From assembly GCA_036271395.1 (NCBI GenBank), contig DATBAS010000193.1:117097-181096 (forward strand): a stretch of DNA of 64,000 nucleotides. The letters run 5' to 3'. Positions within the stretch are counted from its first letter, which is position 1. Every line of letters begins with the position of its first letter. This document shows, in pieces, positions 5,689 through 24,158 of the stretch. The notes under the pieces are model-generated. The model did no database searches. It was not told the DNA's origin and was given only the letters and a program-made list of their open reading frames with translations. Made by a program: the position numbers and the translations under genes. Source of the stretch: Kofleriaceae bacterium (GTDB lineage Bacteria; Myxococcota_A; Polyangia; Haliangiales; Haliangiaceae).

Positions 5689-6807
5689 ATGTCGACCACG
5701 GGAGACGAAGCGCGCGCGTTCGATCGAGCGTTCGCGGAGCTACGGCCTCGGGACCCGGCTGCACGAGTAGCCGGCGCTGGACAGCGGACGCGTCACGCAG
5801 CGCGCTACGATGCACGCGTGATCGATCGCTCCGAGCGTTACCGCGCCATCTCGGCGCTGCGCCCGCCGCTCGACGATGTCGCGCTCGCCGAGCTCGCCGA
5901 TGCGCTCGAAGATCACGAGCTGATCATGGTCGGCACCCCGGGCTGGGAAGAGGATCGCGACAGCATCGGCTGGGCCGCGCGGCGCGTGCTCGAGACCGCC
6001 GGACCGCGCGTCGAGCGCTTCGTCGCACCGAAGCTCGCGAGCGCCGACCGCGCGGTGATCGAGCACGCGCTCGCGATCCTCGCAAAGCGCCCGGTGCTCG
6101 AGCCGGCGACGATCGACGCGATGCTGCATCACGCGGCCGATCCGAAGCTCGCGTATCACGTCGGCACCGCGCTGCGCGGCAAGCTCGACGCGCGCGCGTT
6201 GCTCGACTATCCGGAGACGCGGCTCGCCGGTTTTCTCGCGACGCCCGATCTCGAGCCGGCGTGGCTGCTCCAGTTGCTCGGCGATGCCGCGCTGCGCTCG
6301 CGCGTGCTCGGGCGCATCGCCGAGCTCGCGCCGCCGCCGCACGAGCTGGCACCCGCGCTCGTGCCGTTGCTCGCCGACGCTGCCGTGCGTTATCACGCGA
6401 TCGGCGCGCTGGCGCGGCTGCGCCCGGACGACGCGTCGATCACCGCGGCGCTGGTCGATGCCAGTGCGGTCGAGCATCACGACACGTCGTTCGCGCTCGC
6501 GCAGCGGCCGGTCGCGCACCTACGGTCGCACGTCCCCGCGCTACTCGCGCAGCTGCACAGTGGCCGCACCGGCATCGCGCGTGTGCTCGGCACGCTCGGC
6601 GACACCGCGCCGCCCGAGGTCGCGCTCGCGCTCGGCCACGAGCTCGCCGCCGGCCGCCCGTACGTCGTGCTCGTCGACGCGCTCGACGCGCTCGGCGCCG
6701 CGGCCCTACCCGCGTTACCCGCGGTGCTCGCGGCGGCGCACGATCTCGACGATGAATCCGCGCGCGAAGCCGCTGCGCAGCTCGCGGTGAAGCTGCGCCG
6801 TCACTGA
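5689..6807 (+). CDS. HEAT/armadillo-like helical repeat protein
   Basis: ATG at 5689 inside the longer track ORF 5083-6807; the upstream part is a shadow of the minus-strand genes. Repetitive LxxLLxD.AVRxxAxxAL-type helices. Overlaps the convergent gene by 7 nt. Confidence 0.6.
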   Translation: MSTTGDEARAFDRAFAELRPRDPAARVAGAGQRTRHAARYDARVIDRSERYRAISALRPPLDDVALAELADALEDHELIMVGTPGWEEDRDSIGWAARRVLETAGPRVERFVAPKLASADRAVIEHALAILAKRPVLEPATIDAMLHHAADPKLAYHVGTALRGKLDARALLDYPETRLAGFLATPDLEPAWLLQLLGDAALRSRVLGRIAELAPPPHELAPALVPLLADAAVRYHAIGALARLRPDDASITAALVDASAVEHHDTSFALAQRPVAHLRSHVPALLAQLHSGRTGIARVLGTLGDTAPPEVALALGHELAAGRPYVVLVDALDALGAAALPALPAVLAAAHDLDDESAREAAAQLAVKLRRH

Positions 6808-7757
6808 AACAGGTAGCGCGCCTCCGCGCGTGGCTCGAGCGACTCGCGCGGCAGCAGCCCCTTGCCGTAGCGCTGCGGAGCGTCTGCGCGCGAGCCCGGC
6901 ACCGACACCGGCAGCACCTTGGTGTCGTGCCAGTAGTGCGCGTCGGCGGGGTTCGAGCCGCGATTCTCGAGATGAAGCCACGGGATGTAGCCGTGCTCGC
7001 GCTCGAGCGCGTGGCCCTCCGTGCTCATCTCGTACGCGCCGTAGCGACCTTGGTCGTCACGTGCGGTGAGCTCGCCGATCGGTCCGCCGTCGCTCGGCAC
7101 GTCGGCCGCGAGCTCCGGCGTGACGATCGTCAAGCACCGCCGCGTCAGTGGATTCGCGGCCAGCGCCTGATACGCGGCGAGCTTGCGGGGATTGCCGCGC
7201 GCGTCGATCGTCATCACGCGCTTGAGGTGCGGGCTCGTCGCGAGCACGGCGAGATCGCCCGGTGCGAGCGTCGATTCGGCAAAGCGGATCTCGTCGAGCC
7301 GCGATAGCCACGGACACGCGGCGAGCTCGGCGGCAGGGAACGCGTCGCCGTCGGGATCTGGGAAGAACTCGATGCCGCGGAGCGGTGCGAGCTTGGTCAA
7401 CACGTAGTCGCCGCGCTCGAGGAACAGGTGCGGGTTCATGCTGCACAGCCACGGCAGCCCGCGATGAAACTCGACGGTGCGATAGGTCTCGATCTCTCCC
7501 ATGTACATGCCGAGGTCGCGCGACCACCGGCGCGCGTGCTGGCGGAGCAACGCGTCTTCTTCGCCGCTCTTGCCGCCGATGAGCGAAACGCCCGGGTTGT
7601 AGAACGTCTCGCGCATCCGCTTCGACATCGCGAGCTGACGCTCGATGAAATCGGCGCGCGGCGGATCGCTCGCGGCGATCGCGGTCGCGAGCTTGTGTCT
7701 CGGCGCGTCGTCCTCGGGATTCGCGAGGATCGCGTCCATGCACTCGTCGGCTGTCAT
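6801..7757 (-). CDS. TIGR02996 (repeat-companion) domain protein with leucine-rich-repeat-like C-terminal part
   Basis: N-terminus [36 protein letters not shown] matches the TIGR02996 signature (NPDDD..R...AD.L...GDPRAEFI). Its ATG overlaps the TGA of the giant gene (ATGA at 7754-7757). Confidence 0.75.
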
Positions 7758-22263: not shown

Positions 22264-24158
22264 CCAGCCGCGCCGATATTCGCCGCGCGTTAGCGCTCAA
22301 CCCCGACAAGCGCGCGATCGCCGCGCAGCTCGCCGAGCTCGCCGTCGCCGGGCCGCTATCGCCGGGCGAAGTCGGCGAAGCGCTCGTCGGCTACTTGTTC
22401 GATCCGCACGGCAATGCGTTGCTCGCGACTACGGACGCGCGCGCGACATGGCTCGCCGGGCCGTTGTTTCGCGCGGTCGGTCCAGGAAACTTCGCGCCGA
22501 TCGACGACGTCGTCGCGGCCGTGATCGCCGGGCCGCTGCTCGCAGCTGCGAACAGCGAGGCGCTGCTCGCCCGGCGGTTCGCGCCCCGCGCCGACGACGC
22601 CATCGCGTTCGCGATCGCCGCGTTGCCGGAGCCACGGCAAGCCGACGTGCTCGCGCTGCTCGCCTCGGATGGCGGCCCCGAGCCGCAGCTGCTCGCGCAA
22701 TCGACGCTGCAATGCGGAGCCGTGCTCGCGGCCGCGCCGCACCTGCTCGACGCGCCGATCGCGAGCAAGCTCGTCGCCGAGCTGATCGCGCTGCTCGCCC
22801 CGTCGCGGCCCAAGCCGCTGCTCGATCAAGCGGCACGGATCTGTGCCGCGATCGCGGCGCGCGATCACGTGCTCGCCGAGCGGATTCGCTCGGCCGCGTT
22901 CGCGGCGATCGACGCGAGTCATCGCCCGCCGCCGCGCACGTTCGCCGCCGAGATCGCCGCGATCGGGCGCGCCCGCCGCTTGCCCGACGAAGATCGCTTG
23001 CTCGCGTTGCCGCAAACCGAGGTGGCGCAAGCCGCCGCGTACATCTTGGGGGCGTGCGCGCCGCTCGAACGCGTGCCGTTCGCCGCGCATCGCGCGCTGG
23101 TCTTGGAACGGCCCGACGGTGCCGATCTCGCCGACGCGTTCACCGATGGACTCGTCGCCGCCGCGCACGTGCCGGCGCTCGCCGAGCTTGCCGCGAGCTT
23201 GCTCGACGCCGATGCCGATGCGCCGCTCACCGGGCTCGGCCTCGCGAACGCGTTGCCGCTCGATCCGATCGCCGAGCGGCTGATCGCGGAGCTCGAGAAC
23301 GAGCGGCCGTCGCATCGCGCGCTCGCGTGCGGCGCCGTCATGTTGCTCGATCATCCGGCAGTCGAGCCGGCACTCGCCGCGCGACTCGGCGATCCGTCGT
23401 CGGAGATCGCCGCGGCCGCCGCCCGCGCGCTGGTCGAACGCGGCCGTGGCGATCTGATCGCCGACCACGCGAGCCGTGAAGCGCATCCGCTGCGCGGCGC
23501 GATCGCGCGTGCCGCCACCGGCGAGCTCTCGGTCGCGGTGATCGGCGAGCTCGTGACCGGCGCGTCGCGCGAGCTCGGCGACGAGCCCGGCGACGTCACG
23601 CCGATCGTGCGCTTGCTCGGCGATTGCTTGTTCGGCTCGATCGATGGGCTCGACACGTGCGCGAGCTTGATCGGCGGCGTCCCCGACGCGATCGGCCTGG
23701 TCGCGCTGGCCGCGAGCGCCGATCTCGGAGACAACGCCGACATCGGGGTGATCGCGCCGCCCGACGCGCGCGCGCGCCTCGCGAGCATCGTGATGGATCA
23801 GCACGACGCCGAGCTCGTCGCGCTCGGTACGTTCGTGCTCGCGCGGGTCTCCGCCGGCGACGCAGGCGTCGCCGATCTGGCCGCCGATGGGCTCGCCGCG
23901 ACGGCCGGCCACGCCGACAGCTACCTCGCCGCACTCGCTGCGGTGCGAACCGCGACGCCGAAAACCGCCGCCGCGCTCGCCGCGATGATCGGCGGCGATC
24001 AGCCGATCGGCGCGCGTGTGCTCGCCGCCGCCGCGTGCGGTCGAGCGCTGCCGGTCGATCATCCTGCGTGGGCCGACGTCCGCGCCCTGCTCGAGCTCGG
24101 CACGATCGCCCGCGCAGCGGCGTGGACCGCGCTTCGCGACCGCGCCAGAAAGCTTTGA
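22260..24158 (+). CDS. HEAT-like helical repeat protein, translationally coupled to the AAA+ ATPase
   Basis: ATG at 22260 overlaps the ATPase TGA (ATGA). 632 aa, Ala/Leu-rich repeats with LGDPSSEIAAAAARALV-type HEAT units. Confidence 0.65.
   Translation: MTSRADIRRALALNPDKRAIAAQLAELAVAGPLSPGEVGEALVGYLFDPHGNALLATTDARATWLAGPLFRAVGPGNFAPIDDVVAAVIAGPLLAAANSEALLARRFAPRADDAIAFAIAALPEPRQADVLALLASDGGPEPQLLAQSTLQCGAVLAAAPHLLDAPIASKLVAELIALLAPSRPKPLLDQAARICAAIAARDHVLAERIRSAAFAAIDASHRPPPRTFAAEIAAIGRARRLPDEDRLLALPQTEVAQAAAYILGACAPLERVPFAAHRALVLERPDGADLADAFTDGLVAAAHVPALAELAASLLDADADAPLTGLGLANALPLDPIAERLIAELENERPSHRALACGAVMLLDHPAVEPALAARLGDPSSEIAAAAARALVERGRGDLIADHASREAHPLRGAIARAATGELSVAVIGELVTGASRELGDEPGDVTPIVRLLGDCLFGSIDGLDTCASLIGGVPDAIGLVALAASADLGDNADIGVIAPPDARARLASIVMDQHDAELVALGTFVLARVSAGDAGVADLAADGLAATAGHADSYLAALAAVRTATPKTAAALAAMIGGDQPIGARVLAAAACGRALPVDHPAWADVRALLELGTIARAAAWTALRDRARKL

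Follow-up and report, generated by a model that had tools for sequence, protein, structure and literature searches.

In surveyed extracellular contractile injection systems (eCIS), an AAA+ ATPase is a core gene of the operon, 88% of the known toxins are encoded no more than 10 genes away from it, and the DUF4157 domain is a strong marker of such systems (PMC8213781; PMC11297309). In the case of AlgoCIS, the cargo is built from a disordered N-terminal loading sequence, which is required for loading and acts via the AAA+ ATPase, a DUF4157 domain that is not always present and can be dispensed with in loading, and a C-terminal effector domain (bioRxiv 10.64898/2026.05.27.728243). The largest cargo reported to be packaged has about 1100–1230 amino acids (aa) (PMC11297309; bioRxiv 10.64898/2026.05.27.728243). 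Tme-like effectors are giant and largely disordered, with transmembrane helices and a DUF4157 domain (PMC11126660); Sle1 has a coiled-coil region and a membrane hairpin. Here we analyse a stretch of 64,000 nucleotides (nt) from a soil myxobacterium of the Kofleriaceae (GCA_036271395.1, contig DATBAS010000193.1; the window), which carries a conserved seven-gene unit containing an ATPase that, judging by its sequence, is of the eCIS type and a giant DUF4157-bearing protein of 3340 aa. Comparison with related loci indicates that this giant is a conserved protein of about 1400 aa, here called BIG, joined to a complete DUF4157-headed effector. The reading that we favour, and that we place somewhat short of an even chance, is that the eCIS-type ATPase and its scaffold proteins handle BIG, to which a polymorphic toxin has been attached in the sub-lineage of the window.

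The gene of the Pvc15/Afp15-type ATPase (20164..22263, + strand) encodes a winged-helix N domain followed by the domains D1 and D2. Profiles bear out the AAA+ assignment made in an earlier note on this DNA, with a PF00004 match (E 3.8e-33, aa 496–620) and an N-terminal PF22977 winged helix (aa 49–203) in Pfam, and the best PDB matches, to Cdc48/p97, agree with the two-domain, classical-clade architecture proposed there. D1 has the motifs GAPGVGRK and VLAIDR, with arginine instead of lysine in Walker A and no acid in Walker B, and D2 reads GPPGTGKT / DEAD; by these motifs, D1 is degenerate and D2 active. The same D1/D2 pattern, together with a winged-helix-like N domain, has been described for Pvc15 (PMC11495950). 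A relative with 33% identity (P0110, E 3e-69) is found between the Pvc16_N and the sheath/tube genes of a bona fide eCIS operon of Acidimicrobiales (L007), which also encodes DUF4280 and DUF4157 proteins. From this domain pattern and this relative, we classify the window ATPase as the eCIS type. The window gene itself lies outside any eCIS operon, among TPR-like and HEAT genes, an arrangement that is kept in about 25 loci. A role in a known defence system was considered and rejected, PADLOC giving generic AAA+ matches alone for the ATPase (IetA, TRIP13) and none for its partners; an identity as IteA was discarded too, the NCBIfam match being far under its cutoff. The gene contexts of two divergent ATPase paralogs (P0106 and P0103) were uninformative.

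Relatives of the ATPase were also observed outside Myxococcota, in GCA_964599655.1 (L006) and in the actinobacterium Modestobacter altitudinis GCA_005930475.1 (L008), where they stand beside DUF4157 proteins of 999 and 1237 aa and several proteins without a Pfam match. No tail genes occur within the fetched flanks of these two loci, and the proteins that accompany the ATPase there have no relationship to those of Kofleriaceae; the two loci may be further tail-less systems of ATPase and DUF4157 protein.

The giant gene (7754..17776, − strand) was delimited by the ORF (open reading frame) call, Pfam and public assemblies. Its BIG part, aa 1 to ~1400 (13577..17776, −), is a conserved Kofleriaceae protein that starts with a low-complexity region (aa 1–240, with 82% disorder-promoting residues), continues with a Gly-zipper hydrophobic core (aa ~250–340, nt 16757–17029, −) and contains a second region (aa ~905–1160, nt 14297–15064, −) that, like the core, is conserved in relatives. 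The best-kept stretches are the Gly-zipper core (aa 240–360, 72–86% identity) and then aa 920–1080. The membrane-insertion-like modules that the earlier note had seen in the giant protein are present as hydrophobic stretches, at aa 267–335 and 2240–2275. A query with aa 150–830 of BIG returned just 15 matches, all from Kofleriaceae, and BIG has no PDB, Pfam or PHROG match. Tape-measure identity was rejected for BIG, there being no PHROG match, and no PDB match either for the giant or for a 14-sequence BIG profile.

Ten loci have a complete gene in which BIG is about 1300–1600 aa long and lacks HExxHxxQ, and in those of the window-type arrangement the genes of a small Cys-rich protein and of a 611-aa family (both described below) come directly after it. 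The DUF4157 extension is confined to the window and to L003/L020, L010, L013 and L022. The earlier note had taken the giant for a DUF4157 protein far larger than usual; the domain does not head the protein and starts at aa 1442, in the middle of the chain, because BIG precedes it. The sequence comparison thus resolves the giant protein into BIG (aa 1 to ~1400) and, fused in frame, a complete and portable DUF4157-headed effector (aa ~1437–3340).

The DUF4157/PVC-metallopeptidase domain (aa 1442–1506, nt 13259..13453, −) was correctly recognised in the earlier note: PF13699 (DUF4157, now eCIS_core) matches with E 1.7e-11, above the curated cutoff, and the HExxHxxQ motif is present as HEAAHVVQ at aa 1495–1502. 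The motif agrees with its published definition, and DUF4157 has been proposed as a releasing peptidase N-terminal to polymorphic toxins (PMC3482391). The effector part as a whole (aa ~1437–3340, nt 7757..13468, −) matches complete stand-alone DUF4157-headed proteins of about 2000 aa, several of which align to the giant over aa 1437–1681 and 1942–3329, and for this reason we regard these residues as a complete portable effector. It includes a hydrophobic stretch (aa 2236–2275, nt 10952–11071, −) and ends in an 841-aa C-terminal module (7757..10279, −), in which a GxGGTGxSAAE dinucleotide-binding motif is conserved (aa 3097–3107, nt 8456–8488, −). A HMMER search with aa 2500–3340 retrieved 191 cluster representatives of the module, 88 of them at E <= 1e-30, and no Pfam family covers it; the module stands for a sizeable uncharacterised effector family. 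It usually forms the last ~830 residues of proteins of 1800–4300 aa, typically about 2000 aa, many of which have HExxHxxQ at residues ~80–300 and a single hydrophobic stretch near residues 800–1000. PF13699 was found in 12 of 22 module-bearing relatives (at aa 13–86 in P0259), and one of the 22 has a WXG100/WXG100_2 head instead. The stand-alone relatives P0259 and P0267 lie on contigs of ~21 kb without tail genes or ATPase.

The C-terminus changes abruptly among the extended giants. The proteins of the window and L010 are 76% identical up to aa ~1590, just past DUF4157, and beyond this point have no similarity; the C-termini of L013 and L022 differ again from both. Known toxin domains were not found in the alternative C-termini of L010, L013, L022 and L003. 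The AF2 (AlphaFold2) model of the window module, built from five sequences, has a predicted local distance difference test score (pLDDT) of 62, and its Foldseek matches, weak throughout (E ~5e-4, TM <= 0.41), are to flavoenzymes with two dinucleotide-binding domains, namely the N-hydroxylases SidA, PvdA, DfoA and KtzI and dihydrolipoamide dehydrogenases. The module is possibly flavoenzyme-like, in agreement with the GxGGTGxSAAE motif, and we take this model-based resemblance as a lead rather than as a finding. Pattern scans of metagenome and viral contig collections for the context of the module gave no confirmed relative, a hand-made DNA pattern picking up two short contigs only. As for the architecture of its relatives, one protein of 7476 aa (P0345) has the first part of the module in partial repeats, of which there are no fewer than five and perhaps as many as 12. 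The giant of L013 (1–7680, −) has two HExxHxxQ motifs, at aa 1513 and 1793, which suggests serial capture of DUF4157-headed cassettes.

The effector is accompanied by a 318-aa partner, the gene of which (6801..7757, −) has an ATGA overlap with the stop of the giant gene. The TIGR02996 and LRR labels given to it previously were not sustained, as the TIGR02996 match has E 0.1 and 12.4 bits (cutoff 29) over 14 residues and there is no LRR Pfam match; from its sequence, a TIGR02996-like N-terminus with LRR-like repeats is plausible as a remote resemblance only. On an unrelated contig of 9.9 kb (L039), a 345-aa ORF comes after a module-bearing gene and overlaps it by ATGA in the same way. This ORF is 26% identical to the 318-aa protein (E 1e-4); its TIGR02996-like motif is clearer, and LRR_6 matches it faintly (E 0.004). 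P0259 and P0267 are also each followed by a gene on the same strand (307 and 275 aa) without a Pfam match, the likeness being one of gene size and position. No homolog of the 318-aa gene was found in the related Kofleriaceae loci fetched, although in the other extended loci the corresponding position falls beyond the flanks that were read. Because of the counterpart in L039 and the genes downstream of P0259 and P0267, we assign the 318-aa gene to the effector cassette, outside the conserved core, and consider its product a candidate immunity protein.

The genes of the window, which has about 70% GC, were chosen by codon-position GC (position 1 high, position 2 low and position 3 very high), and all six ORFs singled out in the earlier note have this pattern of real genes, with GC3 of 0.84–0.90. 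Their coordinates stand as given there: 6801–7757(−), 7754–17776(−), 17843–19012(−), 18951/18999–20084(+), 20164–22263(+) and 22260–24158(+), with the ATGA stop/start overlaps at 7754–7757 and 22260–22263 and the divergent, head-to-head starts within 18951–19012. The 3340-aa and 318-aa genes are called identically in independent public assemblies. The limits 6801–24158 that had been set for the locus are too narrow, since conserved partner genes at 2054–3877 and 3890–4222 also belong to it. The order that recurs beside purN in related loci is the 498-aa gene, 611(−), small-Cys(−), BIG(−) and h389(−), then divergently h361(+), ATPase(+) and HEAT(+). The conserved unit, specific to Kofleriaceae and present in 20+ of their loci, therefore consists of seven genes. 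The Pvc15-type ATPase and BIG form its core, and the other products are a WD40/alpha-beta protein, a small membrane protein rich in Cys, two TPR-like proteins and a HEAT protein.

The first of these partners, the "611-aa" family (window copy of ~608 aa, 2054..3877, −; recognised by its homologs in related loci), has 294 members, all of Kofleriaceae type, and no Pfam match. Its AF2 model (pLDDT 79) shows an N-terminal 7-bladed WD40-type beta-propeller, a disordered linker and a C-terminal alpha/beta domain; Foldseek returned WD40 propellers alone in PDB and BFVD, and the propeller matches filled the lists, masking the C-terminal domain. Inspection by eye gave no hydrophobic segment at the N-terminus. 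The possibility that this protein is a hidden tail or baseplate part was discarded in view of its fold, a WD40 propeller with an alpha/beta domain, and on the strength of the model we regard it as a scaffold. The small Cys-rich membrane protein (~110 aa, 3890..4222, −) has an N-terminal transmembrane anchor and a domain with 8 conserved Cys, which is probably periplasmic, and gives a faint match to TIGR04201 (Myxo_Cys_RPT); homologs are present in L004, L005, L016, L023, L024, L027, L028, L030, L031, L032 and L038. The two all-alpha partners are h389 (17843..19012, −; start GTG 19012 or ATG 18967) and h361 (18999..20084, +; start GTG 18999 or ATG 18951/18966). Their genes and coordinates hold as described in the earlier note; the helical-repeat, TPR-like character ascribed to them there is backed just weakly. 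They do not appear to be paralogs (hhalign probability 11%), and an analogy of h361 with alpha-SNAP, as in NSF/alpha-SNAP, was dropped, the matches being not significant (E ~2). The 632-aa HEAT-repeat protein (22260..24158, +) is translationally coupled to the ATPase gene through the ATGA overlap, and its previous designation as HEAT-like is well founded: HEAT_2 is just sub-threshold for the single sequence, and the family profile reaches E 2e-18 to alphaRep/HEAT structures. None of the module partners has a PHROGs or PADLOC match.

ATPase homologs are abundant in Kofleriaceae-type data. A pattern scan of a genome collection, based on an N-terminal alignment of 5 ATPase sequences (an 8-sequence version being too divergent), yielded 27 loci, all from Kofleriaceae/Myxococcales metagenome-assembled genomes. 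From the gene neighbourhoods and tblastn synteny, h389, h361, the ATPase, the HEAT protein and the first ~1400 aa of the giant are co-conserved in about 25 Kofleriaceae-type loci. The co-conservation of six genes envisaged in the earlier note thus applies to these four genes and to aa 1 to ~1400 of the giant, and extends neither to the DUF4157 half, restricted to one sub-lineage, nor to the 318-aa gene. In most loci with visible flanks, the module occupies the same chromosomal position, flanked by purN with its neighbouring 498-aa gene and, at the opposite end, by MgtC/carA/pyrC. A second arrangement, in which small-Cys lies between ATPase and HEAT, 611 follows HEAT and BIG is split in two, is seen in L005, L032 and partly L030. 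It belongs to a diverged second version of the module, with an ATPase 45–57% identical; this and the window-type version are both found in one metagenome-assembled genome (JBDTJY01), on separate contigs (L012 and L030) and each with its own partner genes, which points to an old duplication with separate partner sets.

The other genes of the window, as judged by Pfam on ~50 ORFs, are housekeeping or unrelated genes, among them purN, MgtC, carA, pyrC, hisS, PrkA, kinases and fatty-acid oxidation genes. No tRNA that could have served as an integration site was found within the window. A 191-aa protein resembling YbjN and type III secretion chaperones (TY-Chap1) is encoded at 42715–43290 (+), ~19 kb off the module, and no link to the module was seen.

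The earlier note had also stated that contractile-tail genes are missing from the 64 kb, and our searches, which covered the 64-kb window and the ±10-kb flanks of related loci, uphold this. In the ~50 ORFs covering the window, Pfam gave no match to sheath (PF04984), gp19-type tube (PF06841), gp25, baseplate J, VgrG/Phage_GPD, PAAR/DUF4280 or DUF4255/Pvc16, and tblastn with the sheath, tube, Pvc16_N and DUF4280 proteins of the Acidimicrobiales operon L007 found nothing in the window and 39 related loci (627 kb in total). In the literature, we found nothing on contractile injection systems (CIS) of Haliangium/Kofleriaceae or on orphan Pvc15/Afp15.

An Afp/PVC-type eCIS or another CIS might still be encoded elsewhere in the chromosome, the window contributing a remote set of cargo and loader in which the ATPase would load BIG, or BIG with its effector, into the tube as for Tme or Sle1. 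The membership of the ATPase in a family found in a true eCIS operon (L007) and the value of DUF4157 as an eCIS marker (PMC8213781; PMC11297309) speak for such an arrangement. The same is true of the Tme-like effectors, which are likewise giant, with transmembrane helices, disorder and DUF4157 (PMC11126660), and of Sle1 with its coiled coil and membrane hairpin. Furthermore, the stand-alone effector relatives are found away from tail genes, so distant encoding of cargo may be common. Nevertheless, the location is not what the surveys would predict, given that the ATPase is there a core operon gene and 88% of the toxins lie within 10 genes, whereas here tail genes are missing for ~20 kb in one direction and for ~40 kb in the opposite one. 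Moreover, five dedicated partners co-evolve with the ATPase, none of them an eCIS protein, and one of the five, the 611-aa protein, lacks a tail-protein fold; DUF4157 is absent from most loci; and the 3340-aa fusion is ~3 times the size of the largest packaged cargo. Taking both sides together, we consider a remote particle rather unlikely.

The region 3' of BIG deserves attention in its own right, as it holds further genes in the window. A lipoprotein-like protein of ~272–289 aa with a LAAC lipobox is encoded at 4222..5040 (−), a gene of the variable slot with no homolog in the related loci fetched. A HEAT-like protein is encoded at 5719..6807 (+), as indicated by the frame plot, a HEAT_EZ match (E 0.01) and calls on the same strand in L001/L002; the longer ORF at 5083–6807 (574 aa) probably represents this gene of ~362 aa starting at 5719, because the coding signal upstream of ~5800 is on the minus strand in the frame plot. 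Two small ORFs, 5092–5325 (−) and 5335–5652 (−), are in frame with the 289-aa gene, with single stop codons between them, and both begin with double-glycine-type leaders, MTTITQLSTVLGG and MQTIDLDQLATITGG. The 105-aa ORF has motifs like those of LAS zinc peptidases (H..G.A.D, H.H) and a faint match to a Hedgehog-signalling domain (E 0.14), and a similar ORF with a double-glycine leader is present in L003 (9676–9975). Together with the 289-aa lipoprotein-like gene, these ORFs may form a small cassette of their own, for a secreted toxin or a bacteriocin. In GCA_047600425.1 (L038 1740–8070), an insert of ~12 kb lies between the giant gene and the pair small-Cys and 611 and holds a condensin-type MksB/E/F system, and it is this insert that identifies the region 3' of BIG as a variable insertion slot. 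A gene of the LGT family (prolipoprotein diacylglyceryl transferase) was observed at L038 1–383, near the downstream side of the giant DUF4157 gene, with ~1.6–2.2 kb unread in between, and another one at L006 12155–13393, directly downstream of the 999-aa DUF4157 protein.

Such a slot would fit an alternative in which the module is a housekeeping machine, i.e., a lineage-specific AAA+ system for the biogenesis, quality control or remodelling of BIG as an envelope protein, with no part in conflict between organisms, and the DUF4157 cassette has simply been inserted at a permissive 3' end. The slot is an insertion hot spot, containing the 318, HEAT-like, double-glycine-leader ORF and lipoprotein genes in the window and LGT, BtpA and MksBEF in GCA_047600425.1, and in every family member sampled the module has been passed on vertically, at a housekeeping locus that stays the same. 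The lack of PADLOC or PHROGs matches of any partner, beyond generic AAA+, is also in line with this view. However, the fusion has been kept in frame in at least four diverged loci (five with the window), with different C-terminal cargoes, and this repeated retention suggests that the cargo benefits from being attached to BIG; besides, this clade of ATPases is elsewhere linked with the loading of effectors. We therefore judge a purely housekeeping role improbable.

Returning to the handling of BIG by the ATPase and its scaffolds, BIG holds the position that the disordered loading sequence has in canonical eCIS cargo. This position, together with the constant presence of the ATPase as a neighbour, is the basis on which we propose that the ATPase engages BIG. 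Aided by the repeat-protein scaffolds, it would engage BIG through its N-terminus, unfold it and hand it to a membrane-insertion or export step, in which the hydrophobic core of BIG would enter the membrane. The DUF4157-headed cargo would be carried on BIG, its zincin domain may release or mature the swappable C-terminal effector, and the 318-aa partner may shield the producer cell. As no contractile particle is encoded nearby, we propose that BIG is the carrier in place of a tail tube. In the most specific form of this model, delivery or insertion would be independent of a tail: a Pvc15-type unfoldase uncoupled from any particle would drive a self-inserting BIG, the carrier of swappable DUF4157-headed toxins, with the TPR-like, HEAT and WD40 proteins as scaffolds and with the small Cys-rich membrane protein. 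We regard this form as a minority possibility, on the unlikely side.

Several points weigh against the favoured reading. To our knowledge, the ATPase family and DUF4157 serve a contractile particle in all characterised cases. The action of the ATPase on BIG is read from gene neighbourhood, and no export apparatus (secretin, outer-membrane channel, or parts of an ABC/type I secretion system) was identified in the module. The toxicity of the C-terminal module is putative, its fold coming from a low-confidence model, and the 318-aa protein is a candidate for protection against it. Conservation throughout the family, and at a housekeeping locus, suits a core function of the cell better than a weapon. 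Finally, DUF4157 proteins of Streptomyces bind CIS spike and baseplate proteins (PMC11126660), a behaviour that would favour a particle elsewhere.

The locus bears on the recognition and loading of eCIS cargo and on the role of DUF4157, which are open questions in the field. It constitutes a natural experiment, in which a loading-type ATPase is maintained family-wide with fixed non-tail partners and a fixed presumptive substrate, onto which DUF4157 toxins have been grafted more than once. If these genomes encode no particle, the module would represent a route of toxin delivery or membrane insertion overlooked by surveys of eCIS and type VI secretion systems, which would miss it because they start from tail genes, and DUF4157 and Pvc15-like ATPases would be unreliable proxies for contractile systems. 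Should delivery be tail-independent, the loci of GCA_964599655.1 and Modestobacter altitudinis would mark a wider unrecognised class. If, on the other hand, a particle exists, the genes of its loader and giant cargo can lie at a great distance from it and come with scaffolds dedicated to them, which bears on the engineering of cargo loading.

Among the described systems, in the libraries and literature searched, we found no counterpart of this tail-less module of ATPase and partners, whereas the effector half is a fresh member of an already known kind, the Tme-like effectors. With eCIS loading (Pvc15/Afp15/Alg15 of PVC, Afp and AlgoCIS), the window ATPase shares the winged-helix N domain, the K-to-R change in D1 and the active D2 with DEAD, and the giant has the order of eCIS cargo (N-terminal part, DUF4157, variable C-terminal effector) and a low-complexity, likely disordered N-terminus. 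It departs from eCIS in that sheath, tube, baseplate, spike and terminator genes were not found in the 64 kb, and in that the partners surrounding the ATPase, which are TPR-like, HEAT, WD40 and Cys-rich proteins, are not known from eCIS. The position of the loading sequence is held by a conserved membrane protein of 1400 aa, which is stand-alone in most relatives; a short disordered loading sequence before a near-N-terminal DUF4157 is not in the window protein, and stand-alone relatives such as P0259 have it. In the case of Tme (Streptomyces davawensis, 2247 aa) and of Sle1/Sle2 of S. lividans, the likeness concerns the effector half and its stand-alone relatives of ~2000 aa, with DUF4157 near the N-terminus, a hydrophobic stretch in mid-protein, long low-complexity regions and an enzymatic-looking C-terminal module. 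Unlike Tme-like genes, defined partly by their synteny in CIS clusters, neither the window effector nor P0259 and P0267 have CIS genes found near them; the window effector shows no tape-measure family match in PHROGs, and its C-terminal module is dinucleotide-binding-like rather than an EndA-like nuclease. With respect to polymorphic toxins, the constant part, BIG, does not correspond to a known trafficking domain, the window cassette, of ~1900 aa, is far above typical toxin tips, and immunity and toxicity are putative. The locus nevertheless resembles them (Zhang et al. 2012, PMC3482391) in its constant N-terminal part, its HExxHxxQ peptidase, a C-terminus that changes suddenly from one close relative to another, the occurrence of one C-terminal cassette on differing trafficking heads (DUF4157 and WXG100), and the small gene immediately downstream.

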